Shown piece after piece: positions 2,708 through 35,819 of a stretch of 44,934 bases of DNA (its first letter is position 1; every line of letters begins with the position of its first letter). The stretch is from positions 1 to 44,934 of IMG/VR virus record IMGVR_UViG_3300045988_006673; one strand, given 5' to 3'. Source of the DNA: a virus. Its lineage: Duplodnaviria > Heunggongvirae > Uroviricota > Caudoviricetes. The notes beneath the pieces are model-generated. The model did not search any database and had not been told where the DNA came from. It saw only the letters and a program-made list of their open reading frames with translations. The position numbers and the translations under genes were made by a program.

Positions 2708-3192
2708 AAGATATTGTGATTTTCGATTTAGATGGAACACTGGCGGATGGTACTCATCGTTTACATCTGCTGCCGAAAGATAACTACGGCGAAACCTGGG
2801 CGTGGAAGCCTTTTAACATGGCCTGTAAAGATGATGCGCCGATATATGACAACATTCACTTGTGCAACACACTGTGGCATACAGGGATGATCGTAATCAT
2901 CCTTACTGGGCGCAGTGATGATGCTGAGGATGAGACTCGTAAATGGTTGCAAGAAAATAACGTTAAGTTTGACACGCTGATAATGCGCAGCAAACACGAC
3001 AACAGAAAAGACATCGTAATTAAAGAAGAGGTGTTGCGTGCTATCGGGCTGGAGAGAATATTGTGTGCATTCGACGACTCGCCCGTGGTAATAAAGCATT
3101 TCCGCGGCCTCGGTATAACCACGCACGCGGTTACTGAATACGACTGTAACGGGAACTCTACACACTTAAAATCACACGGGAGTGATAAATAA
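2704..3192 (+). CDS. HAD-family phosphatase resembling the 3'-phosphatase domain of T4 polynucleotide kinase
   Basis: IVIFDLDGTLA (DxDGT nucleophile motif), TGR, RKDIVIKEE and DDSPVV blocks line up with remembered T4 Pnk C-terminal domain; start overlaps upstream stop (ATGA). Confidence 0.65.
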   Translation: MKDIVIFDLDGTLADGTHRLHLLPKDNYGETWAWKPFNMACKDDAPIYDNIHLCNTLWHTGMIVIILTGRSDDAEDETRKWLQENNVKFDTLIMRSKHDNRKDIVIKEEVLRAIGLERILCAFDDSPVVIKHFRGLGITTHAVTEYDCNGNSTHLKSHGSDK

Positions 3193-3746
3193 TGGCTAAG
3201 GTAATTATTCTTAATGGCCCGGCGGGCTGCGGGAAAGACACACTTGCTATGGCGCTGGTAGAAAGGGGCTTTGCAAAGGGCGCCGCCAGTTTCAAGAATC
3301 CAATGTTCAATATTGCTATGGCTGCGTTAGGTCCGGATGCTTACCACGAGTTTCTCGACGGCTACGACGACCGGGCCCGGAAAGAAAAGCCAGAGGGTTT
3401 CCTTAATGGGTTGTCTCGGCGTCAGTTCATGATCGCCATTTCTGAGCAATTCATTAAACCGGTATTCGGTGACGATTATTTCGGTAAGTATCTTGCCGGA
3501 AGATTGCCCGACGGCAACGAAGTTTTTGTAGTGTCCGACGGGGGATTCGCCAGTGAAGTTGCCCCTATCGTTGCCGTCGGGCATGACGTGCGAATCGTTC
3601 GCCTTCATCGTGACGGCTATACGTTTGAGGGGGACAGCCGTGGTTATCTGTATGGCGTTGATGGTGTAAAAGATTACGACACCTACATCATACCGGGTGA
3701 CGTTAAATCGAACGTTATAGACATTGCTTTAAAATTAGGTTTGTAA
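3192..3746 (+). CDS. P-loop nucleotide kinase, most similar to T4 gp1 deoxynucleoside monophosphate kinase
   Basis: Walker A GPAGCGKDT; blocks FKNPMFNIAMAALG and SRRQFMIAISEQF resemble gp1 substrate-binding regions; TAATG overlap with upstream gene. Confidence 0.6.
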   Translation: MAKVIILNGPAGCGKDTLAMALVERGFAKGAASFKNPMFNIAMAALGPDAYHEFLDGYDDRARKEKPEGFLNGLSRRQFMIAISEQFIKPVFGDDYFGKYLAGRLPDGNEVFVVSDGGFASEVAPIVAVGHDVRIVRLHRDGYTFEGDSRGYLYGVDGVKDYDTYIIPGDVKSNVIDIALKLGL

Positions 3747-3754
3747 GAAAAAAA

Positions 3755-3780
3755 AAGGCCCCGAAAGGGGCCTTAGTTTT
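3755..3780. terminator. Bidirectional rho-independent terminator (AAGGCCCC-GAAA-GGGGCCTT flanked by A and T runs)
   Basis: Perfect 8-bp GC stem with GAAA loop between convergent genes ending at 3746 (+) and 3779 (-). Confidence 0.7.
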
Positions 3781-4945
3781 ATGCGTAGCTAATACGCTGT
3801 ATTACAATAGAAGATTGATATTGATTGCCTGTGGACTGTCCTTCTATGCTCTGAGTGATTGACTCTGGCCCCCCAATCTCTGGTGTAACCGCCGTAAGTT
3901 CGGCACGTTTCAGGCTGAAAGACATAGCCCCGTTTACCCCCGCCAGAATAGAGTTAATCTCTACCTGCTGTTCGTTGATAAACTTCTGAATCATCGCCAT
4001 GTCGTACAGCTTGCCAGAGATGGAGAAGGTGTTAGCCGCGCGGCTACGCTCCACAAACGCAACGTTAGTGTTGCCGAGTTCGAACTGTGCGGACGCGCTG
4101 TTATCGTTGGTAATGGTCAAACTGTCGCAACGCAACGGCGTAGAGCCGTCAAACACGGAAACGTCAACCGAGGAGAATGGCTCGTCACCAAACGTAACAG
4201 ATGAGAAGTTGGAACCGGTCGGCGGCGTGGTGAGAATCTCCTGACTGCGACCGATGAATGGGAAGCTGCCAGTTACCATCGCGTTAACAGCCTGTTCGAT
4301 GGTAAACCCAGAAACTTCCACGCCTTTGGTTAACGTGTACGCGTCAGTGCCGCCGCACTGGCCTTTGTACCAGGTAAGGATAGAGAACGTCTTACACGTA
4401 TTACCGGTTTCCAGCGTGTCGCCAGTTTTAGCCTTACTAGTTTTTGTCTCGGCGGTCAGGGTGTGTTGGATGCCCGCACCAGTAACAACCGTAGCCGTTA
4501 CTGCAGTAACAATAAATGGTTTTGCGTTATCGCCTGTTAAATCGGTAAACGCAATCAGGTCGCCTACCCCAACTCCGTCAGTGATAAAGCTGCCGGTGGC
4601 ACGGGTAAAGGTCTTGCCTGCAGGCGCGACGGTAATTGATAGCCCGGTCAGAGAACTACCGGATTGCCATGTAGAGCCTAAAGCACCCGCCAGCCAGTCG
4701 TCCTGGCTTTTCGAGCTAAGCTCAATAGCGTATTCTCCGCTAACCTGCTTGTTACCGGTGCGGATTGACGTAGTTTCACGGCTGCCGTCCAGTTCGTTGG
4801 AGGTCAGCGTGTCGCGGGTAATGGCAGGAACGCCACCTGTGTTACGCAATGGCGCCCAGACCGGGTTAGTCGGTGTTACGCCAGGGGTAGTTTCTGCCAC
4901 ATAGAATTGCGCAGTATTCGCGCCCTTAAAAGGAGTTGTAGCCAT
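3779..4945 (-). CDS. Major tail (tube) protein, putative, possibly with C-terminal Ig-like extension
   Basis: Position immediately upstream (in transcription) of the chaperone and tape measure genes; ATG at 4945 with AAGAGG RBS; Thr/Gly/Ser-rich. Confidence 0.55.
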   Translation of the reverse strand: MATTPFKGANTAQFYVAETTPGVTPTNPVWAPLRNTGGVPAITRDTLTSNELDGSRETTSIRTGNKQVSGEYAIELSSKSQDDWLAGALGSTWQSGSSLTGLSITVAPAGKTFTRATGSFITDGVGVGDLIAFTDLTGDNAKPFIVTAVTATVVTGAGIQHTLTAETKTSKAKTGDTLETGNTCKTFSILTWYKGQCGGTDAYTLTKGVEVSGFTIEQAVNAMVTGSFPFIGRSQEILTTPPTGSNFSSVTFGDEPFSSVDVSVFDGSTPLRCDSLTITNDNSASAQFELGNTNVAFVERSRAANTFSISGKLYDMAMIQKFINEQQVEINSILAGVNGAMSFSLKRAELTAVTPEIGGPESITQSIEGQSTGNQYQSSIVIQRISYA

Positions 4946-4947
4946 AT

Positions 4948-5364
4948 TCACAGCCTCTTGGTGAATGCAATAAAGTTAATTGACAATGGTCGTTTGGCCC
5001 ATCCGTTTTCTACAATCAGCGGCCCCAGGCTAACCGATTGAACCTCGGCGCAGATGTCGTTACGAGAAAATGACTTACCTGCTTTGAATGCCGTGTTAAG
5101 TAAGTCTGCCATTTTATTGATTGGCGCGCTACCTTTCACCGATGCGTAGTTAATGTCGACCTGATAAACACCAGCGCGTTGTTCCGTGAAGAACAAATCT
5201 GCTTGCTCGGTATCCGCCAGTAACATGTAACTTGCCAGATATGGCGTATCGGTTGACGTCGGCGCGTCGATGTTTTCAAGCGCGACCTTGATGCCGTTGG
5301 CGGTTCCGAAGGCTACCAGCGGAACATCGAACGCTTTTGTTAAGTCCTCAAAGTAGCCCATCAT
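4948..5364 (-). CDS. Tail terminator / tail completion protein, putative
   Basis: 138-aa ORF immediately before major tail gene in operon order. Confidence 0.4.
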   Translation of the reverse strand: MMGYFEDLTKAFDVPLVAFGTANGIKVALENIDAPTSTDTPYLASYMLLADTEQADLFFTEQRAGVYQVDINYASVKGSAPINKMADLLNTAFKAGKSFSRNDICAEVQSVSLGPLIVENGWAKRPLSINFIAFTKRL

Positions 5365-5756
5365 TTCACCTTGTTGGCTTCTTCGTTAATGAGTTGCTGG
5401 AAGCGAGACACGTTAGTCCTGACCATACCTTGTGGCGCCTGTTGCGACCAACCGTACTCCAGCCGTTGGGCATACGGCAGATTATTAGTAAGCGTAAACT
5501 CGTGCCAGTCTGCGGCTTTCAGTACGAAACTTGTAGCGTTTCCGATTGCTATGTTTCCTGATTTATCTGTAGCATCCGCAACCCCTGAAGCAGGAGTACC
5601 GCCAGACGCCATCCAGTTCATACGAAAGCGACCAGTATCTACCGGACTCTCCTTTATGATAGCGGAAAACAGCTTAATAGACACCTGGCGCATCACCTTC
5701 TCAGGGTTCTTCTTCGCCTTTTCCACGAACTTAGAGACGTCAAGCGCGAAACTCAT
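5361..5756 (-). CDS. Neck / tail attachment protein (HK97 gp10-like), putative
   Basis: Size and position; RFRMNW and LEYGW motifs reminiscent of HK97 gp10 family. Confidence 0.4.
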   Translation of the reverse strand: MSFALDVSKFVEKAKKNPEKVMRQVSIKLFSAIIKESPVDTGRFRMNWMASGGTPASGVADATDKSGNIAIGNATSFVLKAADWHEFTLTNNLPYAQRLEYGWSQQAPQGMVRTNVSRFQQLINEEANKVK

Positions 5757-8126: not shown

Positions 8127-8185
8127 AATTTACCTCTTAGTAAATGAAAAGAGGGACCGAAGTCCCTCTCGATTATAGCTTAACC

Positions 8186-9235
8186 TTAAGCACCGACACC
8201 AGTTACCAGGAAGGCAATAGGTACGTGCTTACGTTCAACCACACGGTTCCAGTTGGAGGCGTTAGCCAGGTCCTGCCAGGAAGCAGAGCGCGGGGTAGTC
8301 TCGGTGCCGTTGCCGGTGATTACTGCACTGGTGAAGCTGTAGCCCAGTGGGTGCAGCAACCAGGTCTTACGGGTCCACAGGGTTTCGACGCCGCCACCAT
8401 TGCCGCGGGACTCTTCGCGCTCATATGCCAGCGGATTTTTCGGGTTACCTTCGCCGTAACCGATAGCGCCGTTGCCGAAGATGATGGAGATGAACTTGCG
8501 GCTCGTGCCAGTACCTACTACGGTCATGCTGTCATCAACAATCACGCGGTAGCCCTGGTAGGTGGCGAACAGGGTGTCGTTGTCAGCGTCTTTGATGAAG
8601 TCGATAAGCTGCTGCTTACGGGCCTGCGCATAAACGAAGCTGTGCATCGCGATAGCACCCAGCACTTCACCGCCGTTACCCATCAGTGCATCACCCATAG
8701 TCTGGGTGGCGTCGATGAACGCGCCTGCGTCGAAGCCCAGAGTAGAGGACACGTCGATTACCATGTCGTTCTGCTCGTGGTAAGCATCGGTCGCGGCTAC
8801 GTTGTCGTTGTACAGGCCGAGCGCGGTAGCAATCAAACGGCGTTGCGCCTGACGCTGCCAGAAGTTATCCAGACGAGACGCTACAGATTGCAGCGGGTTC
8901 TGGCTGGTCAGTTCAACGGTCAAATCCGCCTGGCCGAAACCTTCGTTCAGGTACGCTACGCGCGCCATCATCTCACCGGTCTGCACATTACGAGGGGTCG
9001 CGATATCCTGGTATACGTCGTTCGAGTAGTTAGGCTCGATAGAGGTATCAATCGCTTTCCAGAACGGAATATTAGCGACGTTGGACGGGCCACGGGCAAT
9101 CTCGGCAGCGTACGGGGTCGGGGTCAGAATACCAGACTGGAAGAACGCGGTTTTTTCTACCGGATCCTCGGTCATATAAGACGCCAGGACCGGGATGTTG
9201 CCAGTTACGATATCGCCGATAGTGGTAATTGCCAT
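8186..9235 (-). CDS. Major capsid protein
   Basis: 349-aa ORF immediately after scaffold gene; GAGGAAATAAT RBS and ATG at 9235; size and position typical. Confidence 0.7.
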   Translation of the reverse strand: MAITTIGDIVTGNIPVLASYMTEDPVEKTAFFQSGILTPTPYAAEIARGPSNVANIPFWKAIDTSIEPNYSNDVYQDIATPRNVQTGEMMARVAYLNEGFGQADLTVELTSQNPLQSVASRLDNFWQRQAQRRLIATALGLYNDNVAATDAYHEQNDMVIDVSSTLGFDAGAFIDATQTMGDALMGNGGEVLGAIAMHSFVYAQARKQQLIDFIKDADNDTLFATYQGYRVIVDDSMTVVGTGTSRKFISIIFGNGAIGYGEGNPKNPLAYEREESRGNGGGVETLWTRKTWLLHPLGYSFTSAVITGNGTETTPRSASWQDLANASNWNRVVERKHVPIAFLVTGVGA

Positions 9236-9237
9236 TA

Positions 9238-9993
9238 TTATTTCCTCAGGGCTTTAAGTTGCCGTTCAAATTCGGCAGGGTTCGATTTGTACAGAGCTAA
9301 ACGCTCCGCTTCACTCATGTCTTTAAACGCTGGTGCGGCCCCGCCGCCTTTGCCACCGGAAGCCCCGCCGCCGGAAGCTGCATTTGCTTTAATCAAATGC
9401 GAAAACGCTTTGTGTTCGCGCAGATATTTGCGGAACTGTTCCGGGTCAGTCGTGATTACGTTACCGTCTGCGCCGACAAACTTAGTAACCACATCATCGC
9501 CTTCGAACTCAGTCTTAACGAACGGTGCAAGGATGTCCACTGCTTCCGGGGTGATGAAGTCACCCGCGAAAGAGCCTAACACCGCTTTACGTTCGCTGCC
9601 GAGGATGCGCTCTGCCATTCTGGAGATGCGACCGTCTTTCTCGGCTAACACCGGGTCATACTGGCTACGAATCGTCTTTTCGAACTCGTCCATCTTACCG
9701 GCGGCTTTTAACGCCTCCTGGTGTGCACGCTGCCGTTCTTCTTCGGCCTCTTTTGCTTTACGGGCTGCTTCTTTCTTCTCCGCCAGCAATGCTTCCTGAT
9801 TGGCCTTAAGCCCGGCAACTTCTTTCTCAATCAGCGCCTGAACTTCTTCAGCGGTGAACATTTTCGGCGCATCCCCGCCACCGGCTTTATCTTCTGCTCC
9901 AGCTTCTTCCTGGAACGGATAACGTAAAAAACGATTCATAGTCAGTATGTCCCCTGGACGTTGGAACCCGGGCCACCCGGATTTACATGTCAA
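9238..9993 (-). CDS. Scaffolding protein (true start possibly ATG at 9939)
   Basis: Coiled-coil, charged, Ala/Glu/Lys-rich sequence; located between morphogenesis genes and major capsid. Confidence 0.55.
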   Translation of the reverse strand: MTCKSGWPGFQRPGDILTMNRFLRYPFQEEAGAEDKAGGGDAPKMFTAEEVQALIEKEVAGLKANQEALLAEKKEAARKAKEAEEERQRAHQEALKAAGKMDEFEKTIRSQYDPVLAEKDGRISRMAERILGSERKAVLGSFAGDFITPEAVDILAPFVKTEFEGDDVVTKFVGADGNVITTDPEQFRKYLREHKAFSHLIKANAASGGGASGGKGGGAAPAFKDMSEAERLALYKSNPAEFERQLKALRK

Positions 9994-10021: not shown

Positions 10022-10285
10022 CTATTCCAGAATATTCCTCACGTAATCCTGCAACATGAATACTTTCAGCCTCAGTTGCCGTACACATTCGGCATTCTGA
10101 ACGTCGATAGCTAAATCCTCGTCGGCGTTGCTACTTGGCGGAGCCAGTTTGCACGGCGGCTGCATCATCGTCATATCCGGGGACGGAATTGGCGTTTGCG
10201 ACGGCGTGGGACTTGAGCTGCACGCGCTCAGGGTCAAAAGTGCACACGCTGCGACCAGGCGTTTTAATGTACTTAACGACTTCAC
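10022..10285 (-). CDS. o-spanin (Rz1-like outer-membrane lipoprotein), overlapping the i-spanin gene in another frame
   Basis: Lipoprotein signal with lipobox LSAC, proline-rich mature region; GTG start with AGAGGTGA RBS; overlaps 10131..10517. Confidence 0.6.
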   Translation of the reverse strand: MKSLSTLKRLVAACALLTLSACSSSPTPSQTPIPSPDMTMMQPPCKLAPPSSNADEDLAIDVQNAECVRQLRLKVFMLQDYVRNILE

Positions 10286-10517
10286 GGGTAATCACCTCTG
10301 ATTTCGTCTTGCCTTCGTTGTCAGCGGCTGCGGCCTTTGATTCGTCCTGCTGCTGCCGTTGTGTTTTCTTCGCTAACTCAGCCTGTGCTTTCTGCTGTTG
10401 CTGCGAAACGAGATTCGCCCGGCCTTCGTTCCAGCCGCTGCGATACTGGTAGATGCCGTGTGTGTAAGCCAGGATGATGAAACATGCTCCCGCTACGACA
10501 GTTGCTTTAAGATTCAT
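10131..10517 (-). CDS. i-spanin (Rz-like)
   Basis: N-terminal transmembrane segment followed by Gln/Lys-rich coiled-coil periplasmic domain; AAGGAGA RBS; contains overlapped lipoprotein gene. Confidence 0.6.
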   Translation of the reverse strand: MNLKATVVAGACFIILAYTHGIYQYRSGWNEGRANLVSQQQQKAQAELAKKTQRQQQDESKAAAADNEGKTKSEVITREVVKYIKTPGRSVCTFDPERVQLKSHAVANANSVPGYDDDAAAVQTGSAK

Positions 10518-10541
10518 GTTTCTCCTTTCTCGATAAGTAAA

Positions 10542-10561
10542 GCCCCGCCTTAAAGCGGGGC
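10542..10561 (-). terminator. Hairpin GCCCCGC-CTTAAA-GCGGGGC followed by T-rich tract on the minus strand
   Basis: 7-bp GC stem, TTTACTT downstream on the minus strand; lies 25 bp upstream of the i-spanin start. Confidence 0.4.
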
Positions 10562-10768
10562 GATAGTCCTTATCATTTAAACATAGAAACGGCGTAATCT
10601 CAGTAAACCAGTTACTTTTTACACAAGCAATAGAGTATGGCCCTTCCGAACGCGTCAGCGTAACTACACTCAGGACTTACGTCCCGCTCCGTTACCTGCC
10701 CGCGCCGCGGTCGCTTGTTCATACTTCACAAGCTCAGGTGGAGCTTATCATATTTTCAGTGAAAAGTC

Positions 10769-10784
10769 AACTATTCGAATAGTT
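10769..10784. repeat. Perfect 16-bp palindrome AACTATTCGAATAGTT
   Basis: Exact inverted repeat; half-site GAATAGT matches the core shared by the promoter elements. Confidence 0.6.
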
Positions 10785-10836
10785 TATTCCAACATTTACA
10801 ATTCAGTGGAATAACCGGAATAGCTAAACAAATAGT

Positions 10837-10865
10837 TTGCACACCCCAATATAATAGGGTACTAT
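10837..10865 (+). promoter_or_regulatory. Class I promoter-like element P2: TTGCAC-N17-TACTAT, spacer ACCCCAATATAATAGGG
   Basis: Identical spacer to P1; about 30 bp upstream of 10894 start with GAGGAG RBS. Confidence 0.5.
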
Positions 10866-10893
10866 TCATTACATCGAAACGAGGAGATGAAAA

Positions 10894-11415
10894 ATGGTTA
10901 CTACAGTAATTACTTTCCCTGCGTATGTAGGGGCAAAAATCTGCAGGGCTAAAAATGATGTGCGCTACTATTTGAACGCTTTTTACATAGACCCTGAAGG
11001 ATTGATAGTGTCTACGGACGGGCATAGATTGTTCTGCGACAATGTGAAAACAAACGTCGGAACGGGAGTTCTAATAGACATCAAAGGTAGGGAGCCTTCT
11101 AAATTTAACTACGCGGAGGTAGACCACGGCAACGGTAGTGTTTCTTTCTATGACGATAGTAGTGCGCTTATATGCACACTTCCGATCGGTATTGTAGACG
11201 GGAGATTTCCTTACTGGAGACGTGTGGCCAGCATTACGCCGGGTTCAGTTGATAGCATAGGGTTCTCTCTGCGCTATTTGGCGGACGCGTACAAGATTTC
11301 TAAGGCATACAAAAATGAAATTGCCCGTTTCGATTTCCAGGACCAAACAAACGGGTGCAAAATATCATTTTCGAACACTGCATTTATGGTGTTAATGCCG
11401 GCGCGATTTAAATAA
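10894..11415 (+). CDS. Truncated DnaN-like protein (homolog of bacterial beta sliding clamp domain II plus a C-terminal segment)
   Basis: NDVRYYLN...STDGHRL, VDGRFPYWRRV, IGFSLRYL and C-terminal VLMPARFK match remembered conserved blocks of E. coli DnaN (QDVRYYLNG...TDGHRLA, VDGRFPDYRRV, IGFNVSYVL, VVMPMRL); only 173 aa versus about 366. Confidence 0.6.
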   Translation: MVTTVITFPAYVGAKICRAKNDVRYYLNAFYIDPEGLIVSTDGHRLFCDNVKTNVGTGVLIDIKGREPSKFNYAEVDHGNGSVSFYDDSSALICTLPIGIVDGRFPYWRRVASITPGSVDSIGFSLRYLADAYKISKAYKNEIARFDFQDQTNGCKISFSNTAFMVLMPARFK

Positions 11416-11421
11416 AACTAA

Positions 11422-11441
11422 GGCCCCGAAAGGGGCCCTTT
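11422..11441. terminator. Bidirectional terminator GGCCCC-GAAA-GGGGCC with flanking A and T runs
   Basis: Same hairpin as at 3755..3780; between convergent genes ending 11415 (+) and 11443 (-). Confidence 0.65.
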
Positions 11442-11442
11442 A

Positions 11443-11904
11443 TCATTCTGGCTTAGTGACCTTCGCCGCTTTACTGACGGCCTCCACACCATCGGCATCA
11501 GTAACTTTAACGAAGTATTCACCGCCTGCGTTAACCGTCAGGGATAGAGCCTCTTCCGGGGCGTTTACTACTTCCTTACCGTCTTTGTACCATGTCAGTG
11601 TATATGGTGCTTTGCCCGCCTTAACTTCGACAGTGATAGTTGCGCTGCCGTCCGCCAGTTCAGTGTCTTTCGGTTGCACTGAGAAATACACATCGCCAGC
11701 GTCTGCCAGATACGGAATCTCGTAAAGCATACCAGCCGCTGGCAGCGCAATACCGGTTTTATCAGCAAACGGCATATCGTCCACTGGTGCACCAAGCACA
11801 CTTTCATCCTCAATAAATACCACGTTCTCACCGGAGCCAGACACGCGGGCGTACCGGACTACGCGACGCGCGGGTACATCAGTTACTTTGAAAAAGCCCA
11901 TCAT
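11443..11904 (-). CDS. Ig-like domain protein (virion-associated, putative)
   Basis: C-terminal YTLTWYKDGKEV...GEYFVKVTDADG resembles Ig I-set/Big domains. Confidence 0.45.
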   Translation of the reverse strand: MMGFFKVTDVPARRVVRYARVSGSGENVVFIEDESVLGAPVDDMPFADKTGIALPAAGMLYEIPYLADAGDVYFSVQPKDTELADGSATITVEVKAGKAPYTLTWYKDGKEVVNAPEEALSLTVNAGGEYFVKVTDADGVEAVSKAAKVTKPE

Positions 11905-12991: not shown

Positions 12992-13020
12992 TTGCAGACA
13001 CCAATATAATAGTGTACTAT
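12992..13020 (+). promoter_or_regulatory. Class I promoter-like element P3: TTGCAG-N17-TACTAT, spacer ACACCAATATAATAGTG
   Basis: Third plus-strand copy; 28 bp upstream of small ORF at 13048. Confidence 0.45.
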
Positions 13021-13047: not shown

Positions 13048-13227
13048 ATGAAAAATTACAAATTCTACGCGGTAGTAGACGATAAAGGGGTTGTTGGTAT
13101 TTCTAACGAAAAGTATAGAACTTTGAAAGCTATCTTCACAGATTTGTCTTGTGCTGAGCGAGTGCTGGAGAGGAACAAAAACATGCCGCTAAGAATAGAG
13201 GTTGTAGAGATAATTAAGCCCCTGTAA
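13048..13227 (+). CDS. Small hypothetical protein (59 aa), between head morphogenesis and portal genes
   Basis: ATG with AGGAG RBS, own promoter and terminator; not in ORF track (<60 aa). Confidence 0.4.
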   Translation: MKNYKFYAVVDDKGVVGISNEKYRTLKAIFTDLSCAERVLERNKNMPLRIEVVEIIKPL

Positions 13228-13237: not shown

Positions 13238-14725
13238 TCATTGCTGGGGATTCTGTTGGTCTTGCGAGTTAGCCGACTGCGGAATCTCCCCCTCAACCTG
13301 AGTAACAGCACCTAACGGCAACGGTGCACCCTCAATAGCGTTCTGAATATCCTCGTCGGTCCAGTCGGTTACGCCGGCCTTGCGCAGCGCCGCATAGTAA
13401 GCGGTGGCCGGCAATAGGCCTGCGTTAATATCCGCCATCCACTGAGCGCGGTCCTGAGCTGTCATCGGTTGCAGGAAGAACTCCATATTCAGCTTGAACT
13501 CAATCTCTGTTCCCTCGCGCAATCCTAGCATCGCAGCTACCCAGCGCAACGCATCGGTGTACGCCATGCTTACGTTACGTGCGATTGTCGCCATAACAGA
13601 CGTATCAGCGCCGCGTTGCAGACGGGCCGATTCAGCGGTGATTTGCTGCGTTGGAGTAATAAGCTGCGCACCAATCTGGATCGCCTGATTCTCTTTATCC
13701 AGCATGTTCTGTTTGGCAAGGTTGTTCTCTCCTGCCTGAACCAGAAACGCATTGCCGCCGTAACCGATGTTATGACCTGAACGCGACCCCATGCGCACGC
13801 CGTGTGGGTTAGCTTCTTTCCACTGTTCCATGCTCATGTTTTCACCGGGGGCGATGAACAGAGTGGGTTGCCCGACCACGAAGCTGGACTCCTCATTGTC
13901 CGCGCTGTTGCGGAAATGCCCGATATTAAGCTCAGCTAACGGTAGCAAAGGTGCATCGTCGATAGTGGCGTCGTTGTTGCTTGCACCAATGAACGTGAAC
14001 GGGATTTCACCGCGTAGCTGTTCGCCAAGTTCCGGGAAGATTTCGATTACTTCACCCTGAGCACCACCTTCGGCATCGAAGCGGTAAATGCGCTGGCGGT
14101 AGCGCCCGTCAATCAAATCGAGAACGCGATACTGCTCACCGAACTTTGTTTCGAACTCTGCGCCCGGTTCCGAGTATTCCCACACCTCACGCAACACGAC
14201 CATAGTCACGCGGTTCACTGAACCGATGCGGGTCAGTCGCCAGTTGATGATGTTCTCTGCGGTATAGAATGCAATGACCGGGTTTAGTAGCCCCGCATTC
14301 TGTTCGGCTGCCGTTGCCGCGGCTGTCTCCGGGGCGTCCACCAGCAACCCACCACGACCTACCGAGTCAATCTCCATTAGAGTATCCTGCGCGTGTTGCC
14401 ACAGACCGACACCGGAACCGTCTGCATTACGTAACAGGTACTCCAGTTCCGGCGGGATAATCTGCTCGGGGTCTTTGCGCATCACCGACCCCACCATCCC
14501 CGCCAGGGTACGTTTAGTGAAGTTGTAGCAGATAGCGCCGTTCTCGTATTCTTCCTGGCGCTGTGCCGCGTAGGTCGGGTCAGGCTCGTTCTTCCCGACG
14601 TTGCGCAGATAGCGAATAAGGTCGCCTTCCAGCGCGTGCCGCACCTTCTGCCATTTATCGAAGTGATGCAGCCATTCCCGGTGTTTTGTCTTAACACCCT
14701 GATTCTGACCGTTCATAGTTAACAT
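13238..14725 (-). CDS. Portal protein
   Basis: 495 aa, directly downstream of terminase large subunit; AAGAGG RBS; acidic C-terminal region. Confidence 0.75.
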   Translation of the reverse strand: MLTMNGQNQGVKTKHREWLHHFDKWQKVRHALEGDLIRYLRNVGKNEPDPTYAAQRQEEYENGAICYNFTKRTLAGMVGSVMRKDPEQIIPPELEYLLRNADGSGVGLWQHAQDTLMEIDSVGRGGLLVDAPETAAATAAEQNAGLLNPVIAFYTAENIINWRLTRIGSVNRVTMVVLREVWEYSEPGAEFETKFGEQYRVLDLIDGRYRQRIYRFDAEGGAQGEVIEIFPELGEQLRGEIPFTFIGASNNDATIDDAPLLPLAELNIGHFRNSADNEESSFVVGQPTLFIAPGENMSMEQWKEANPHGVRMGSRSGHNIGYGGNAFLVQAGENNLAKQNMLDKENQAIQIGAQLITPTQQITAESARLQRGADTSVMATIARNVSMAYTDALRWVAAMLGLREGTEIEFKLNMEFFLQPMTAQDRAQWMADINAGLLPATAYYAALRKAGVTDWTDEDIQNAIEGAPLPLGAVTQVEGEIPQSANSQDQQNPQQ

Positions 14726-14737
14726 TGAATAATCCTC

Positions 14738-15988
14738 TTAAAGTGCGAAAGTCACCGGGATGTTGATTACTGGTTTAACCACCGGCATCTCGTAAACTAC
14801 AGGATAACCGAGAGCGTCCGCCATATGGTCAATGACGCCGTCCTTAGCTGGCTCTCCGTTATCATCATATGCCTGCTGCTCCAGCGTCTTCGCTATCTCA
14901 GGGCATAAGTGGTCATTAACCCACAGCTTACCTTTTTCCAGCGCGGTATTCACGGCTAAAACGCGGTCCTTAACCGGGGGGTTGGCAGATTTAGCGCGAA
15001 CATCGAACCCGGCCTGCTGGAGTAATGCAATATCAGAGATTGACGCTGAGTTCGTCTTGCGGTTCTTGCCGCTGGCGTCGGGGTAAACAACGATGCGGTG
15101 GCCTTGTGACTTCCACTTCTCTGTAATTACGCGCACGGTGTCCGGCGTATCGAACAAGCCTTTCAGTTCTGCCACCGCGTGCCAGCCGTCTTTACGCTGT
15201 ACATACACGGCACTTGCGTTCTTTGTAACGTTGAAGTCCTGCCCGATGTACAGAGTGTCGCCTGGTTGAATTGTCTCTTTGCTGCGGTGCTTGCGTCGGT
15301 CATATGCGTAATACACGCTGCCGGATGTCAGGTTAACAAACTCACCATTCAGATACGCGTTAATCAACTGCGCAGGGTAAGTCTCTGTCAGTGAGCTAAT
15401 GTAATCCGGCGGCAGGAATCGCGCATTCTCATGTGTGGAAGCCTGCACCATCGAGTAACTTGGCGTCGGGTTCTCTTTGAACTTGGCGTAGACGAACTTG
15501 AACCCTTCCGGCGTCGTGGTAACAGAGATGTGGTTAGTTACGCCCGGGATAACCAGACGCATACGGGCTACAATTTTGTTCCACGCCAGTTCAGCTTTTT
15601 CACGGCTCAATACGTCCAGCTCATCGACGACTGCAGCAGCGATTTTGAAACCAACGATAGAGCCAGGGTTGTCCATCGAGCGGCAGATAACAGTACCGAG
15701 AACAGTCTTACCACGAGTAACCACGACTTCTTTGTCGCCGGATTTAACCAGCACATCAAGGCCGAGCAGGTTAGCCGCCTCTTCGAATGTCGGGTAGAAG
15801 ATATCGCGGATAGCAGGGTATGTCGGGCCGAAATAGCCCAGGCGAGTACCTGGGTGCTTGAGCATAAACGTAAGCAGGTCCAGACAGCCCACAAACGTCT
15901 TGCCACTGCCGAAGCCTCCGACATAGGCTTTGTACTTGTTATCGCAATTCAGGAACAGCGCCTGCGGGGCCGATAGCTGAATACTCAT
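14738..15988 (-). CDS. Terminase large subunit
   Basis: Walker A GGFGSGKT near N-terminus, Walker B-like VVDELD, C-terminal nuclease-like region; 416 aa. Confidence 0.85.
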   Translation of the reverse strand: MSIQLSAPQALFLNCDNKYKAYVGGFGSGKTFVGCLDLLTFMLKHPGTRLGYFGPTYPAIRDIFYPTFEEAANLLGLDVLVKSGDKEVVVTRGKTVLGTVICRSMDNPGSIVGFKIAAAVVDELDVLSREKAELAWNKIVARMRLVIPGVTNHISVTTTPEGFKFVYAKFKENPTPSYSMVQASTHENARFLPPDYISSLTETYPAQLINAYLNGEFVNLTSGSVYYAYDRRKHRSKETIQPGDTLYIGQDFNVTKNASAVYVQRKDGWHAVAELKGLFDTPDTVRVITEKWKSQGHRIVVYPDASGKNRKTNSASISDIALLQQAGFDVRAKSANPPVKDRVLAVNTALEKGKLWVNDHLCPEIAKTLEQQAYDDNGEPAKDGVIDHMADALGYPVVYEMPVVKPVINIPVTFAL

Positions 15989-24346: not shown

Positions 24347-26617
24347 ATGTCCGATGTAATTTTATCCTACTCGTGGTCTCGTCGCAACGCGCGAGCGGAG
24401 AAAAAGGATATAAACGTCAGAACAACACACACGGCAACACTGGACGACCTGAAAGAGTTAATCCAGCCACTAGATGCCGTTCGTGGCGGAATTAACCCGA
24501 AGACCGCGCCCGGTTATATCACTGCCGCGTGTGACTCTACACACAGCACCGTAAAAGACCCGGAAACCGGTGACTTTAAGCAAGCGCGTAAAGGCTTCTT
24601 CTATCGCTGTGATGCGTCTGTAAGCAAATCGTCGCTGGCGTATCTGGACTTCGACAGTGCAACACCGGAAGAGTATCAGAGAGCTGTGCGCCTGGTTAAG
24701 CGCAGCCGCCAGGCTATGTGCCTTTACACCACGGCATCCCATACTGATGAGGCCCCACGCTTCCGCGTCGTCGTGCCGCTAGGTTGCCCGGTTGAAGGTG
24801 GCGACATCATCCGTGTTCGTCATGGATTGCTGGAGCATTTCTTCAAAGGTATGGGCGCGGACCGCAGCGGTTTTACTCTGTCCCAGCCTATGTACCTGCC
24901 ACCGGTTGGCTCTACCGTTATCTGGTCTCGTCGCAACGACCTGATTGACCCGAACGAGTTACTGGAAGGCATCCCCGCCGTTGACGTTAGCAGTGCATCG
25001 GATTACCAGATACCGGAAGAACTGCGCACCGCGTTTACTGATGCGTTCGAGGCACTGGCGTTCGAGTATGGCGGCATCATGACGCCGCGCGGCCTGAAAA
25101 TGCCAGCTACGCCGGAACACGCGGAGAACTACAGCGACCCTACGCCGCGCCCGGATGACTTCCTGCTGTGCTTCCCGCGTGAAGGGTACGAAGCGCCCAA
25201 CGTAGCAATGATTCACGACACCGACATTACGGCGACAGAAGGCATGTCACCGAAAGAGGTGTGGAAGTATGCGTGCGACGCGACTGGTCTTCCGTTCAGT
25301 GAAGTCGCCGAGGCTATCGGCTGGGGCGCACGTGAGTCAGTTTTGTGCAGCCTCGACGACCTGGAAGACGACGAGGACTCAGAGGAGGACGAGCTACCGG
25401 AACCGGTAAAGGCCGATTTCGTCGTTGAAGGGTACATGCCGTCGGATTGTATCTGGGATATCGTCGGGGAATCTGGCACGTACAAATCGTTCTATACGCT
25501 GGGGATGATGTACCTTAGCGCCGCCGGATACCGGTTTGCTGGGGCGGACACCCAGCGTTGTCACCATTTCTATATCGATGGTGAGGGTGGTGCAGCCACA
25601 CGTACACGTATTGATGCGCTCGCGGCTAAATACGGCGCGGAAGGTAAAGATTATGTACATGTCATTGATATGGGAGAAGTTGGAAAACTGAAAAGTCTGA
25701 TTAAGCTAATGCGCGAAACTGCTGGCGACGAGCCAATTGGCATGGTTGCGTTCGACACCCTCAACCAGACGCTGGCCCTGACGATTGATAAGTTCGACGA
25801 GAACAGCTCCTCAACAGCAATCGGCATGGGTAAAGTTATCGCCATCCTGAAAGAAGTACGCGACGCGACTAAAGCCGCGGTAGGCGTTGTCCACCATACC
25901 CCGAAGGGTGGAAAGAAAGCCCGCGGCAGTGGGGCATTGTATGCTGGTGTCGATGTGGAGCTAACAATTGAGCGTGCGACCGATCGCCAGATAAACGTAT
26001 ACCACTCGAAATTTAAGCACGGGCCTCAACAGAAGACGGTGGGCATGGTGCTGGAGTCGGTACAGTTCCGTGAAGCGCCGCCGCCGAAAGAATACCGTGC
26101 GGTTGAGTTCATCGGTAACACAGAGGAATACGGCACAATCGTAAACCTCGACCTGCCGGAACCACACAAGGCGCTTGTACTGATGCCGTGGGGCTTCGAG
26201 CCGTTCAAGACTGACGAGGAGAAAGAGCGGGAAGAAGGACTGACAAATGAAGGTAAAGCGGCCGTTAAAGAAAAGGTAGGCCAGTTTGAGAAACTGGATA
26301 CCAAAGAAGCTACGGTTATTTACGCATTAGGTAAATTGCAGGAGCAGGGTGATGACAAGCGAGGGTTCTCCATGTCCGCTATCGTCAAAGCGGCAAAAGA
26401 AGATAGTTACGGCGTACCGATTAACGCTAACAACGACCTTCGAAAGAAACTGGAAGAGATGCACGAGGCAGGGGTTATCGTCTCAGGACTGGATAACAAC
26501 AACAGGCCTATACCTAAGCAGTACCGTCTGCCGTGGGGTATAAACGACAACAAGATTCCGAAGACAATATACGAACCGAATGAAATGCTGGTGGTGACAG
26601 AGGAGGATTTGGAATAG
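24347..26617 (+). CDS. Primase-polymerase / RepA-like replicative helicase (756 aa)
   Basis: N-terminal region with LAYLDFD acidic motif (primase-like); central P-loop GESGTYKS and RecA/AAA_25-like core; GAAGGAAA RBS. Confidence 0.65.
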   Translation: MSDVILSYSWSRRNARAEKKDINVRTTHTATLDDLKELIQPLDAVRGGINPKTAPGYITAACDSTHSTVKDPETGDFKQARKGFFYRCDASVSKSSLAYLDFDSATPEEYQRAVRLVKRSRQAMCLYTTASHTDEAPRFRVVVPLGCPVEGGDIIRVRHGLLEHFFKGMGADRSGFTLSQPMYLPPVGSTVIWSRRNDLIDPNELLEGIPAVDVSSASDYQIPEELRTAFTDAFEALAFEYGGIMTPRGLKMPATPEHAENYSDPTPRPDDFLLCFPREGYEAPNVAMIHDTDITATEGMSPKEVWKYACDATGLPFSEVAEAIGWGARESVLCSLDDLEDDEDSEEDELPEPVKADFVVEGYMPSDCIWDIVGESGTYKSFYTLGMMYLSAAGYRFAGADTQRCHHFYIDGEGGAATRTRIDALAAKYGAEGKDYVHVIDMGEVGKLKSLIKLMRETAGDEPIGMVAFDTLNQTLALTIDKFDENSSSTAIGMGKVIAILKEVRDATKAAVGVVHHTPKGGKKARGSGALYAGVDVELTIERATDRQINVYHSKFKHGPQQKTVGMVLESVQFREAPPPKEYRAVEFIGNTEEYGTIVNLDLPEPHKALVLMPWGFEPFKTDEEKEREEGLTNEGKAAVKEKVGQFEKLDTKEATVIYALGKLQEQGDDKRGFSMSAIVKAAKEDSYGVPINANNDLRKKLEEMHEAGVIVSGLDNNNRPIPKQYRLPWGINDNKIPKTIYEPNEMLVVTEEDLE

Positions 26618-27518: not shown

Positions 27519-27791
27519 ATGATTTACCAACTCTACCGCGCCGTAGACAGGCGGGATAACACAGAGGCGCTATGGCTGTTACGTGCGCCGTCCGGTGCGC
27601 ACCTGATGGAAGAGATGGCGTACTTAGGCAAAGTACCGCGACCTAAAGATATAGGCCGCCACGTGTCACAGATTAAGCGCACGACTTTCGCCAAACCTGA
27701 CTTTTATGTATTCGAGTCGATGTATGGGTGGGCTATGCACTGCGAGCATAAGACACGACATTTAATCGACCAGTGGGAGAACCGGGTATGA
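27519..27791 (+). CDS. Hypothetical protein (90 aa)
   Basis: ORF; stop overlaps downstream nuclease start (ATGA). Confidence 0.4.
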   Translation: MIYQLYRAVDRRDNTEALWLLRAPSGAHLMEEMAYLGKVPRPKDIGRHVSQIKRTTFAKPDFYVFESMYGWAMHCEHKTRHLIDQWENRV

Positions 27792-29098
27792 TTTTAAAGG
27801 AACGCGGCGGCAATAATGATGTGCACGCCTTACTGTCGCCGTCAGGTGCTAAAAAGTGGCTAAGCTGCGCGGCATCGTTGGCCTGTGAAAAAGATATTCC
27901 TAACACTTCGGGTAAATCCGCCGTTACAGGGACTGCGTGCCACACTATAGCAGAGGTCCATCTAAACCAGTACATCAAAGGCACTGCGTTGCCGTTGGAG
28001 CGCGAAGTCGGTGCTTACGTGCTGGATGAGGGTAAAGGCCAGATTAAGGCGCTAATCAGCCCGATGAAGGGCGCGGTACTGATTACGGCGGATATGATTG
28101 AGCAGGTGCGCAAGTACACCGACTACTGCAAAGCGATTATAGATGTAGCGACTTACGCCAAGCTGGAAATGCGCGTCAATCTTACTGAGGTATTGCATCC
28201 GGGGTACAAAGTACCTGCTGGGAGTGAAGAAGGTAAGGAGGATGGTTTAGAGACATTCGGAACAGCCGACTTAGTGGCGGTTATAGAAGGCTTTACGGGT
28301 GAGAGTAACTCAGCGATGCTAATTATCGGCGACCTTAAAACAGGACGGCATCGGGTCGAAGCGAAAGAAAACAAGCAGCTTATGCTTTATGCGCTCGGTG
28401 TATATCGCCGACTCAAGAGACGTTATAACATCACAGTTGTTCGTCTGGTAATCTTCCAGCCGTACGCTGGCGGTGCGTTGGAGTGGGACATTTCGGTTGA
28501 AGGTCTGGAACTGTTCGCTAAGTTCGCACAGAAACGAGCACTGTTAGCTCTTGATGCCTATTCCCGTGGCAAGAAGAATCTGAAAGCGTCGGATTTCAGG
28601 CCGTCGGTCGATGGGTGCCAGTGGTGTCGGTTCTCTGAACAATGCGCCGCGCGTACAAAGACGGTTAATTCTGTACTGGCGGAAGAACTGGAAGACGACT
28701 TTGCGCTGGAGCTTACGCCGGAGCAACTCGTAGCTGAGTATGAGAAGTTGCCGCTGTTGCGCCAGCACATCGACAAGGTTGAGAGAGCTATGGCTGCCGC
28801 GTTGCATTCTGGCAAGAAAGTGCCTGGGTACAAGCTGGTCGAAGGTCGCCCGGGTAATCGTGCGTGGAAAGATGCGAAGGAGGTAATAGACGCCGCAGAA
28901 TTTTATGAAATAGACCGGAAAATGCTGTTTAAGGCGTCTCTTGTGTCTCCTAAAGAAGCAGAGGCCGCGTTCAAAAATACCGATGCGTGGCCTATTCTCG
29001 AAAAACTAATTACCCGTAAGCCCGGCGCACCATGTGTCGCAACGACAGATGATAAACGGCCTGAGTGGAATCAGGTAACAGAGGAGGATTTGGAATGA
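27788..29098 (+). CDS. PD-(D/E)XK exonuclease (DUF2800 / Cas4-RecB-like) with C-terminal Cys cluster
   Basis: C-terminal CQWCRFSEQC cluster typical of Fe-S containing RecB-family nucleases; adjacent to SSB-like gene; start chosen at ATG 27788. Confidence 0.65.
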   Translation: MILKERGGNNDVHALLSPSGAKKWLSCAASLACEKDIPNTSGKSAVTGTACHTIAEVHLNQYIKGTALPLEREVGAYVLDEGKGQIKALISPMKGAVLITADMIEQVRKYTDYCKAIIDVATYAKLEMRVNLTEVLHPGYKVPAGSEEGKEDGLETFGTADLVAVIEGFTGESNSAMLIIGDLKTGRHRVEAKENKQLMLYALGVYRRLKRRYNITVVRLVIFQPYAGGALEWDISVEGLELFAKFAQKRALLALDAYSRGKKNLKASDFRPSVDGCQWCRFSEQCAARTKTVNSVLAEELEDDFALELTPEQLVAEYEKLPLLRQHIDKVERAMAAALHSGKKVPGYKLVEGRPGNRAWKDAKEVIDAAEFYEIDRKMLFKASLVSPKEAEAAFKNTDAWPILEKLITRKPGAPCVATTDDKRPEWNQVTEEDLE

Positions 29099-33890: not shown

Positions 33891-35307
33891 GTTTCAAAGG
33901 CGCGAGTACCAAAAGCTCATGACTTCGTTCATGTTGCGGCACCATCGATGCAACATATGGGCAAGCATGGGTGCCGGGAAGACTGGCAGCGTACTGTGGG
34001 TTCTAAACCGCCTGTTCCGCAACGGGCAGCTCACGGAAGAGGACCGCGTGTTAATCCTCGCCCCGTTACGTGTTGCGTCCGGTACGTGGCCTGCTGAACA
34101 AGAGAAATGGAACTTCCCTTGTCTGCGTGTCGTAGATGCAACCGGTTCAGAGAAGCGCCGCATCGCGGCGCTGGAGTCAGACGCTAACGTGGTTTGCACC
34201 AACTACGAAGTTATCGAATGGCTGATTGACTACTACGGCAAAGACGACTGGCCTTTTACGGTTATCGTTGCTGACGAGAGTACGAAGCTAAAATCATTCC
34301 GCAGCCGTTCGGGGGGAAGCAAGCGGGCGAAGGCGCTTAGTAAAGTGGCGTTCGGTAAAGTTAAGCGTTTCATTAATCTTACAGGCACACCATCACCAAA
34401 CGGGCTCAAAGACTTGTGGGGCCAGAACTGGTTTATCGATGGCGGCGAGCGCCTCGGTTCTTCATACACGGCATTTACCGACCGCTGGTTTAACTCGGTG
34501 CAAAAAGGTAAGTCGGCTATGGCGCGGGAGTATCACGCACGACCGGGTGCGGATACTGAAATTCATCAGAAGATGAAGGACATTAGTCTCACGATTGACG
34601 CCGCCGAGTGGTTCGGATGTGAAGCGCCGATTATTGTACCGGTTGAGATAGACCTGCCGAAGAAGGCGCGTCAGGCGTACATCGATATGGAGGAGAAGTT
34701 ATTTGCGGAACTGGAGAGTGGGGAAGTTGAAGCGGCTAACGCGGCGGCGAAGACGTCGAAGTGTTTGCAGATTGCATCCGGTGCCGTATATGTGTCTGGC
34801 CCCGACGGCGAGGCAACCAAAGACTGGGAGAAAGTGCACGACACGAAACTAGACGCGCTGGAGTCGATTGTCGAGGAGTTACAGGGTGCGCCGTTGCTGG
34901 TCGCCTATCAGTTCAAGCACGAACTGGAGCGCATCCTTAAGCGATTCCCTCAGGCACAGGCGTTTGCCAAAGGTGCTAAGGGGAATAAGCAGATGGAAGC
35001 GTGGAACCGCGGGGAGATACCTATGCTCCTGATACACCCAGCCTCCGCAGGTCACGGGCTGTCGCTACAACACGGCGGACACCACATGGCCTTTATGAGT
35101 CAGGGGTGGAACCTGGAACATTATTTGCAGGTTATCGAGCGTATAGGTCCGGTAAGGCAGATGCAATCTGGATACAGACGGTCTGTATTCATTTATCAAA
35201 TAATAGCCCGAGATACTCTTGATGAAGTTGTCGCCGCGCGTACAGACGAGAAAAGGTCTGTACAGGATGAACTACTTAATTATATGAAGAGAAGGAGTAA
35301 GAAATGA
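33883..35307 (+). CDS. SNF2-family (SF2) helicase
   Basis: Motif I GAGKT, motif II DEST, motif III LTGTPSPNGLKDLW typical of SNF2-type ATPases; start chosen at ATG 33883. Confidence 0.7.
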   Translation: MSKFQRREYQKLMTSFMLRHHRCNIWASMGAGKTGSVLWVLNRLFRNGQLTEEDRVLILAPLRVASGTWPAEQEKWNFPCLRVVDATGSEKRRIAALESDANVVCTNYEVIEWLIDYYGKDDWPFTVIVADESTKLKSFRSRSGGSKRAKALSKVAFGKVKRFINLTGTPSPNGLKDLWGQNWFIDGGERLGSSYTAFTDRWFNSVQKGKSAMAREYHARPGADTEIHQKMKDISLTIDAAEWFGCEAPIIVPVEIDLPKKARQAYIDMEEKLFAELESGEVEAANAAAKTSKCLQIASGAVYVSGPDGEATKDWEKVHDTKLDALESIVEELQGAPLLVAYQFKHELERILKRFPQAQAFAKGAKGNKQMEAWNRGEIPMLLIHPASAGHGLSLQHGGHHMAFMSQGWNLEHYLQVIERIGPVRQMQSGYRRSVFIYQIIARDTLDEVVAARTDEKRSVQDELLNYMKRRSKK

Positions 35308-35819
35308 TGGATTGCGAGGAGTTACTACTTAGGGTGCATCTGTTGTCACGAGGTTTTGACGCGGACCGTTTACGTGTAGTCTTAGGCCCTGGAGTAGCTA
35401 CGTTTTACCTGTGGGGGTTTGATGGTAGGCTTCGCGGATACCAGCACTACAAACCACACGCGGAAAAGAACTGTAAAAACCCTAAAGACGCGAGGTACTT
35501 TACCAGAACAACAAGGCCGTGTTTGTGGGGGCTTGAGTATTTGCCGTATAGCGGGGTGGTATTTGTTACCGAAAGCATATTCAAAGCCGTAGCATTGATG
35601 AATTGCGGGTTCAATGCCGTAAGCGCACTGGGGTCAAATATACCAGCCGATTTACGGCGGCAAATGTCACTTTTGCCGTATGATTGGGTGTGCGCTGGGG
35701 ACAATGATAAAGATGGGTTAAAGTTCAGCAAAACATTCACCAGAGGATTTGTATCTAACGACCTTGATGAACTTTGTGAAGAAGAAATAACGTATCTTGC
35801 GAGGAAATTTACCAGATGA
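35304..35819 (+). CDS. TOPRIM-domain protein (DnaG-type primase catalytic core-like), stand-alone
   Basis: VFVTESIFKA (conserved Glu) and AGDNDKDG (DxD) in TOPRIM-typical order; ATGA overlap with helicase. Confidence 0.5.
   Translation: MMDCEELLLRVHLLSRGFDADRLRVVLGPGVATFYLWGFDGRLRGYQHYKPHAEKNCKNPKDARYFTRTTRPCLWGLEYLPYSGVVFVTESIFKAVALMNCGFNAVSALGSNIPADLRRQMSLLPYDWVCAGDNDKDGLKFSKTFTRGFVSNDLDELCEEEITYLARKFTR

Follow-up and report, generated by a model that had tools for sequence, protein, structure and literature searches.

The window analysed here is the whole of IMG/VR virus record IMGVR_UViG_3300045988_006673, 44,934 nucleotides in length. It is a Kagunavirus genome (Guernseyvirinae), i.e., that of an Escherichia coli phage, and the open reading frame (ORF) at 10894..11415 on its plus strand encodes a truncated, 173-amino-acid homolog of the bacterial beta sliding clamp (DnaN), hereafter the short clamp. 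This coding sequence comprises domain II of the clamp and one β-α-β-β-β unit of domain III, and retains the native C-terminus. Two findings are new: selection in the family of such proteins is concentrated on the partner-binding pocket, and in Kagunavirus the gene is the dispensable cargo of a cassette. Because the ring-making parts have been lost while the partner-binding parts have been kept, we propose that the short clamp may be a soluble, non-ring pocket module that binds the clamp-binding motifs of host proteins, a reading to which we assign about an even chance.

The homology to the beta clamp was evident in sequence, profile and structural comparisons. In a phmmer search of the PDB sequences, E. 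coli beta was matched with an expectation value (E) of 7e-6, residues 16-124 of the short clamp aligning to E. coli residues (Ec) 144-260 and residues 117-171 to Ec 312-365; overall, the match of the 173-residue protein was confined to Ec 137-260 and 312-366, and the identity with E. coli beta was about 20%. A profile of 169 family members scored 112 bits against E. coli beta. When Pfam was searched at E <= 10, solely the central and C-terminal domains of the beta clamp were matched, with 14.6 bits for PF02767 and 11.4 bits for PF02768, which lie below the gathering cut-off of 27, and the NCBIfam equivalog TIGR00663 was not reached (15.5 bits, cut-off 137.65). An AlphaFold2 model based on a 26-sequence alignment had a predicted local distance difference test score (pLDDT) of 94.1 and a predicted template modelling (TM) score of 0.90, and the best 50 Foldseek matches of this model in the PDB were all beta clamps (E about 3e-8, TM 0.68 normalised to the query). 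Two of the checks that had been proposed for the ORF, namely HMMER-type profiles and structure prediction with Foldseek, returned beta-clamp domains, the former below the curated Pfam and TIGR00663 cut-offs and the latter with a confident model.

The clamp-like sequence blocks that a preliminary description of this DNA had listed, together with the 173-residue ORF itself, are indeed all present, and all of them align to E. coli beta. NDVRYYLN (amino acids 21-28) equals Ec 149-156 and STDGHRL (40-46) equals Ec 171-177, and the codons from the former through the latter (amino acids 21-46; 10954..11031) encode the domain II wall of the pocket, with Ec R152, L155, T172, G174, H175, R176 and L177. 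VDGRFPYWRRV (amino acids 101-111; 11194..11226) equals Ec 237-247 and includes the pocket residues P242, R246 and V247; IGFSLRYL (122-129; 11257..11280) equals Ec 317-324, with Y323 kept and N320 changed to serine; and VLMPARFK (166-173; 11389..11412) equals Ec 360-366, with V360, M362, P363 and R365 kept and M364 changed to alanine, all of these codons being on the plus strand. The E. coli numbering given in that description was roughly right and needed small corrections, VDGRFPYWRRV for example having been placed at 243-253.

The architecture of the protein is that of a clamp from which specific parts are missing. It runs from the first strand of domain II to the native C-terminus of the clamp, and no match to the N-terminal domain (domain I) was found in sequence or profile comparison. 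In the model, the linker between domains II and III (VDGRFPxWRRV) is followed by one strand, one helix and three strands, so that domain III is represented by a single β-α-β-β-β unit instead of two, giving 1.5 domains overall. Ec ~250-311, which includes Ile272 and Leu273, was unmatched in the preferred alignment; mutation of these two residues makes beta monomeric (PMC11139829). In addition, a loop of 9 residues is all that remains of the second helix of domain II, so that the model has two long helices, whereas a 207-residue relative keeps this helix and has three long helices (model, pLDDT 85.6). In this lineage, the protein thus also lacks one of the helices lining the DNA channel. When the sequence was aligned by MAFFT with full-length beta, amino acids 117-150 were placed on the first half of domain III. 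This placement was set aside, the second half being supported by the local alignments of HMMER and Pfam as well as by the IGFxxxYxxD match; it is preferred because the family-conserved IGFxxxYLxD corresponds to Ec 317-326 and the ...MPxR(L/F) tail to the native end. Under the favoured alignment, the missing unit is the one that carries Ile272/Leu273, and under either alignment one repeat unit of domain III is missing. By the favoured alignment, both surfaces that close the beta2 ring, namely domain I and the Ile272/Leu273 region of domain III, are absent. The statements that the ORF is less than half the length of DnaN (173 against 366 amino acids), lacks domain I and cannot form a normal beta2 ring agree with these results, while the statement that most of domain III is deleted has to be amended, since about half of it is missing (Ec ~250-311) and the second helix of domain II is reduced as well.

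The cleft between domains II and III of the beta clamp docks the clamp-binding motifs (QLxLF-type) of the alpha, epsilon and delta subunits of DNA polymerase III (Pol III), and those of Pol I, II, IV and V, ligase, Hda and MutS/MutL. Subsite I of this pocket consists of R152, L155, T172, G174, H175, R176, L177, P242, R246, V247, V360 and M362, and subsite II of H175, N320, Y323, V344, M362, P363, M364 and R365 (PMC11139829). Of these positions, 17 could be mapped onto the short clamp, and 15 of them are identical to E. coli beta. Conservation within the family was centred on the same residues: across 169 diverse short-form representatives, the mean column entropy was 1.00 bit in the pocket against 2.77 bits elsewhere (Mann-Whitney p = 8e-9), and pocket residues made up ten of the 13 most conserved positions of the family (G174, P242, R152, T172, M362, H175, P363, Y323, L155 and R365). 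Because the model superposes rigidly on beta protomers over 162 residues, it indicates that both walls of the cleft would keep their native relative position.

It is to be noted that the ORF is an ordinary member of a large, already annotated phage family of short beta clamps of 160-225 amino acids, which make up a structural variant of the beta clamp in their own right. Homologs were retrieved by tblastn in at least 224 phage records, the carriers including Kagunavirus, Cornellvirus, Dhillonvirus, Skatevirus, Roufvirus and Serratia Eta, as well as phages of Klebsiella, Proteus, Vibrio, Acinetobacter, Burkholderia and other hosts, and the orthologs in the Kagunavirus phages XY2 and Snoke are 89-91% identical. 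A profile search of 1.84 billion cluster representatives gave 4926 matches at E <= 1e-10; among the best 150 of these, 144 were 160-225 residues long and only two were full-length clamps. In BFVD, many phage proteins of 163-266 residues have the same fold (TM 0.8-0.87). For distinct Kagunavirus orthologs, the ratio of nonsynonymous to synonymous substitution rates (dN/dS) was 0.15-0.2 in four comparisons, with a value of 0.38 for the closest pair, which is the mark of purifying selection. Labels such as ‘DNA polymerase III sliding clamp’ and ‘beta clamp domain-containing protein’ are already in use in GenBank, and the sliding-clamp annotation in the record of phage Snoke cites an HHpred probability of 99.88%. 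The best PHROG match, phrog_3007 (E = 1.7e-34, residues 13-172), is named ‘RusA-like Holliday junction resolvase’, and this label has been reaching GenBank phage records by way of automated annotation (e.g., PQ429079.1, NC_016566.1, NC_054646.1 and NC_071156.1). We rejected it for this family of beta-clamp fold, for which it is wrong: no RusA family was found in the Pfam search, which yielded beta-clamp domains only, and the structural neighbours were all clamps. A genome paper treats the protein as an ordinary clamp that tethers the polymerase (PMC9825357), and no functional study of the short clamp family was found in the literature searched. The earlier remark that the function may be undescribed holds to this extent, the gene itself already bearing a beta-clamp annotation in many phage records of GenBank.

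The short clamp gene lies within the head module as a self-contained, counter-oriented cassette, as had been described, since its neighbours are all encoded on the minus strand. Over region 10500-11900, the window shares 91.8% identity with Escherichia phage vB_EcoS_XY2, and matches to this locus occur in 182 phage records. On one side of the gene lie the Hoc-like decoration gene (11443..11904), the head morphogenesis gene (11904..~12950), the portal gene (13238..14725) and the gene of the terminase large subunit (14738..15988), and on the other side the spanin genes (10131..10517 and 10022..10285), the scaffold gene (9238..9993) and the major head protein gene (8186..9235). Only 23 of the 182 matching records cover the clamp gene. 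In phage Golestan (NC_042084.1), the same promoter element and terminator hairpin enclose a different cargo (at 1840-2430 of the locus stretch, corresponding to 10837-11441 of the window), which consists of a 33-residue membrane peptide, a 114-residue lipoprotein with the lipobox LSGC, and another small hydrophobic ORF; this other cargo is suggestive of a function in the envelope or in superinfection exclusion. The Kagunavirus LM08P2 is without the clamp gene and keeps the helicase-primase, exonuclease, PolA and helicase at 88%, 92%, 77% and 94% identity, respectively. The slot behaves like an exchangeable moron site. Since it is swappable and siblings with the same T7-like replisome lack the gene, the short clamp belongs with the accessory factors of host interaction, outside the core subunits of the replisome.

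Several other features of this locus were recorded. Between the cassette promoter and the spanin gene, about 275 bp (10542-10836) are apparently non-coding and are kept in relatives that carry other cargo; a strong terminator-like hairpin lies on the minus strand at 10561..10542, directly upstream of the spanin start. A 551-residue ORF on the plus strand (8144-9799), antisense to the major head and scaffold genes, has an Ala/Arg/Ser-rich translation of low complexity and can almost certainly be dismissed as a gene. PADLOC, Rfam and tRNA scans returned no matches, and when the short clamp protein was compared with the defence models of PADLOC-DB, no family was matched at E <= 1.

The cassette has its own expression signals. 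The 29-bp promoter-like element TTGCACACCCCAATATAATAGGGTACTAT at 10837..10865 on the plus strand can be read as a -35 box TTGCAC, a 17-nucleotide spacer and a -10 box TACTAT, although it agrees with the sigma-70 consensus at 7 of 12 positions only, a weak match that was skipped by a generic consensus scan. It is one of four near-identical copies in the window (<=3 mismatches), where none would be expected by chance. The copy at 1128-1156 (plus strand) heads an opposite-strand island in the tail module, that at 10837-10865 heads the short clamp gene, that at 12992-13020 (plus strand) heads a 59-residue ORF between the portal and head-morphogenesis genes, and that at 23429-23457 (minus strand) heads a run of small ORFs typical of early regions. 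In three copies, an ATG start follows 28-29 nucleotides downstream, and the intervening DNA holds an AGGAG- or GAGGA-type site; for the copy at 23429, the listed start is a GTG 26 nucleotides downstream, or else an in-frame ATG 9 nucleotides further. Because the element is conserved over its full length, including the ‘spacer’, which itself contains TATAAT, it suggests a dedicated class of promoter or operator for accessory and probably early genes. The ribosome-binding site GAGGAG at 10881..10886 (plus strand), 7 nucleotides before the ATG, was read from the sequence, and its equivalent is annotated in phage Snoke. At 11420..11439, a G+C-rich hairpin with the core GGCCCC GAAA GGGGCC ends both the clamp gene on the plus strand and the Hoc-like decoration gene on the minus strand; it scored as an intrinsic terminator in both directions (-14.3 and -17.4 kcal/mol), is annotated on both strands in phage Snoke, and is retained in phage Golestan. 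The ribosome-binding site and the bidirectional terminator that had been attributed to the cassette were both recovered, the hairpin at the coordinates given here, and the promoter attributed to it stands as a recurrent element and is poor as a sigma-70 promoter. The tail-module island (1185-3746, plus strand) is a counter-oriented DNA-metabolism island that encodes a 108-residue protein of no recognised function, an SbcD/Mre11-like exonuclease, a polynucleotide kinase and a deoxynucleoside monophosphate kinase; the two kinase genes are absent from LM08P2 and are therefore variable cargo too. The 59-residue ORF at 13048-13227 (plus strand) has no family match, is likewise absent from LM08P2, and makes a further small counter-oriented cassette in the head module.

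The replisome of the phage is T7-like, with a helicase-primase, a gp2.5-like single-stranded DNA (ssDNA)-binding protein, PolA, an exonuclease and a Toprim primase, and no clamp-loader-like match was found among the ORFs of the replication region that were scanned. A strict clamp-binding-motif pattern, applied to the phage proteome, matched three ORFs, two of them spuriously, and no such motif was found at the termini of the phage replication proteins. The sequence QMSLL in the 171-residue Toprim primase-like protein (35304..35819) was considered as a ligand: its gene is absent from LM08P2, but is present in Golestan and in Jerseyviruses that are likewise without the clamp gene, and this lead was dropped because it did not co-vary with the clamp gene. 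The helicase-primase (24347..26617) and the exonuclease (27773..29098) share their final seven residues, VTEEDLE (26594-26614 and 29075-29095). In phage T7, gp4 and gp2.5 bind the polymerase via acidic C-terminal tails. By analogy, the VTEEDLE tails are reminiscent of those of T7 gp4 and gp2.5, and suggest a common docking partner in the T7-like replisome. As a ligand of the clamp pocket this tail was rejected, since it is identical in the clamp-less LM08P2 and does not fit the motif.

In other phages, the short clamp was found in contexts that are all phage DNA-metabolism or accessory-gene settings. In the Dhillonvirus EP23, a Shigella phage, it is counter-oriented in the head module; its co-oriented neighbour there (4601-5365 of the locus stretch) is a protein with nucleotide modification associated domain 5 (Nmad5; E = 2e-58), which hints that the Dhillonvirus island is linked to DNA modification. 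The Skatevirus BS5, the Roufvirus pYD38-A and Klebsiella phage 6991 carry a counter-oriented head-module island made up of a ParB/KorB-like gene, a 57-residue ORF and the short clamp, and the island of BS5 also holds an annotated anti-restriction gene. In Serratia Eta, an early operon of a ParB-like gene, the short clamp and a helicase is divergent from the primase; on a metagenomic phage contig the short clamp lies downstream of a DUF5906 primase-helicase; and in Proteus ZX7 it is the last of a run of small ORFs ahead of the lysis genes. In BS5, pYD38-A, 6991 and Eta (2496-4501, 2241-3765, 2136-4004 and 4131-5504 of the locus stretches), the gene was seen just downstream of the ParB/KorB-like gene, which encodes about 272 residues, and a conserved ORF of 57-58 residues lies between the two in three of them, so that the ParB/KorB-like gene, the small ORF and the short clamp may form a functional module. 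The window itself has no ParB-like gene, and no convincing clamp-binding motif was found in the ParB/KorB-like neighbours or in the 54-65-residue ORFs directly upstream of the homolog.

Under the proposed pocket-module function, the short clamp would probably be made early in infection as a soluble protein that does not encircle DNA, and its pocket would serve to hold at least one host protein by its clamp-binding motif. In a phage whose own replisome is independent of a clamp, the bound proteins, which may include delta, Pol III or repair factors, would then be withheld from the host clamp or, alternatively, a bound host enzyme would be brought to the phage DNA. If so, this would be the first description of what may be termed a ‘hub-pocket decoy’, in which a virus copies only the partner-docking cleft of a hub in order to soak up or re-route the proteins that bear the motif; in a bolder variant, the protomers of 1.5 domains would join through their half-domains into a two-faced dimeric crescent or a four-subunit ring, which would be a novel oligomeric architecture for a clamp. 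We advance this broader idea tentatively, as it falls somewhat short of an even chance. Candidate targets would be the delta subunit of the clamp loader, Pol III, the repair polymerases, mismatch repair, Hda, and a motif-bearing toxin or defence nuclease. Of the functions suggested earlier, a polymerase-recruitment device or decoy fits best with a family that conserves the partner-binding pocket. A ‘poison’ is not preferred over a ‘recruiter’ because a pure poison of Pol III would be self-defeating in phages that depend on the host replicase.

Several observations weigh against the pocket-module function. Some members of the family occur in exactly such phages, which apparently rely on the host replicase (Serratia Eta and the contig with the DUF5906 primase-helicase), and the downstream effect may therefore be recruitment, or may depend on the lineage. 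The pocket is not fully preserved, as it carries the differences N320S and M364A, and the equivalent of V344 is uncertain in the alignment. Its conservation could in part reflect structural constraint or the ascertainment of profile searches, because the pocket residues are also the best conserved in cellular clamps and such searches favour the sequences that keep them. The placement of the domain III unit (amino acids 117-140) is ambiguous, the family profile aligning to the first half collinearly and to the second half separately. A new homo-oligomer built on the pseudo-twofold symmetry of clamp domains is geometrically conceivable. Lastly, early expression is suggested solely by the shared promoter motif and by the genes that it drives.

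The conceivable homo-oligomer leads to the first rival, a processivity clamp of a new style, in which protomers of 1.5 domains would pair via their half-domains and domain II edges into a dimeric crescent, or into a ring of four subunits and twelve motifs, and would tether PolA of the phage or a polymerase of the host to DNA. We regard this as improbable: the window protein has a mere loop in place of one channel helix, the scanned replication region offers no clamp-loader-like protein, siblings with the same polymerase and helicase-primase lack the gene, and the phage replication proteins have no canonical clamp-binding motif at their termini. The family is, moreover, near neutral and not strongly basic, although its median isoelectric point (7.7) is uninformative about a DNA-binding face. 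The leading idea of the preliminary description, namely that the host clamp itself is targeted, would have the protein associate with a monomer of beta, or cap a ring that has opened, and so poison the host clamps. It draws on the fact that a beta homolog of this shape exposes those edges of its sheets at which a full clamp continues into domain I and the remainder of domain III, and on phages known to attack the clamp, e.g., Twort with Gp168 (PMC8565349); nonetheless, heterodimerisation with host beta is unlikely, as both halves of the canonical interface (domain I and the Ile272/Leu273 segment) are absent and the conservation of the family is centred on the pocket rather than on the sheet edges, and we give targeting of the host clamp a small probability only.

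It is also unlikely, in our estimate, that the short clamp links DNA transactions with a further process, e.g., transcription, or serves as a factor binding DNA or ssDNA, its pocket then holding a phage protein or ssDNA. For the coupling, gp45 of phage T4 serves late transcription in a role similar to the use of the clamp by phage Mu. Mu enlists the host beta clamp for the transcription of its late genes (PMC12867686), a monomeric variant of beta still binds DNA (PMC11139829), and ParB/KorB-like DNA-binding proteins recur beside the gene in four other phage groups. However, neither the window nor the neighbours in other phages yielded a phage protein in which a clamp-binding motif is conserved, and the Kagunavirus cassette is without a ParB-like partner. 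The remaining possibilities, a decaying remnant of a captured dnaN or a RusA-like Holliday-junction resolvase, are effectively refuted. A length of under half that of DnaN would suit the former and the name of phrog_3007 the latter, but the dN/dS values, a family length that is stable over hundreds of clusters, the confident model (pLDDT 94), the restriction of Pfam matches to beta-clamp domains and the exclusive presence of clamps among the top structural neighbours speak against these readings.

In bacteria, the beta clamp serves as the central docking hub for replication and repair, and it is also a drug target; a widespread phage protein that consists of little more than its pocket would naturally compete for every partner of the clamp. 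If confirmed, the pocket-module function would represent a new strategy of host takeover, i.e., mimicry of the hub pocket instead of inhibition of the hub; it would provide a compact and possibly monomeric scaffold with which clamp-binding motifs could be studied or screened; and it would correct two misleading annotations now spreading among phage genomes, ‘sliding clamp / processivity factor’ and ‘RusA-like resolvase’. The exchangeable head-module slot is also a handy natural site for accessory genes in these phages.

Comparison with known systems places the short clamp closest to the bacterial beta clamp itself (DnaN; E. coli structures 2POL and 1MMI; PF00712, PF02767 and PF02768), to which it is homologous in sequence and fold over domain II and the C-terminal portion of domain III, and with which it has 15 of 17 pocket residues and the ...MPxR(L/F) tail in common. 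It differs from DnaN in having 173 residues instead of 366 in three tandem domains (about 360-380 being typical), in lacking domain I, the first half of domain III and one channel helix, in scoring below the Pfam and TIGR00663 cut-offs, and in being encoded by a phage-borne, accessory gene carried in a cassette. The Ile272Ala/Leu273Ala form of E. coli beta is monomeric, keeps the pocket, binds DNA, and binds delta about 50-fold tighter than the dimer does, while it does not support processive synthesis (PMC11139829). This non-ring beta with a pocket is a precedent for a high-affinity trap of a clamp partner, although it is an engineered, full-length protein of three domains, and the phage protein is a natural one of 1.5 domains. 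The 5-residue loop of domain III by which beta also contacts delta presumably lies within the region deleted from the phage protein. A UV-inducible shorter product of E. coli dnaN of about 26 kDa, beta*, was reportedly described by Skaliter et al. and by Paz-Elizur et al. (both in J Biol Chem, 1996) and proposed to be a clamp. Both beta*, which is said to start near the boundary of domains I and II, and the phage protein are natural, N-terminally shortened forms of beta that lack domain I; beta* reportedly keeps all of domains II and III, whereas the phage protein is also without half of domain III. Twort Gp168 (PMC8565349) and MuC of phage Mu (PMC12867686) are, like the proposed pocket module, phage factors aimed at the interaction hub of the beta clamp during infection, but they have unrelated folds and bind the host clamp, whereas the short clamp is a clamp derivative that would compete for the partners of the clamp. 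Finally, the herpesvirus factors UL42 of herpes simplex virus 1 (HSV-1), UL44 of human cytomegalovirus (HCMV), PF-8 of Kaposi's sarcoma-associated herpesvirus (KSHV) and BMRF1 of Epstein-Barr virus (EBV) have two full PCNA-like domains with a basic DNA-binding face and are essential polymerase subunits, in contrast to the phage protein, which consists of 1.5 domains, has a near-neutral charge, and can be dispensed with in its genus.

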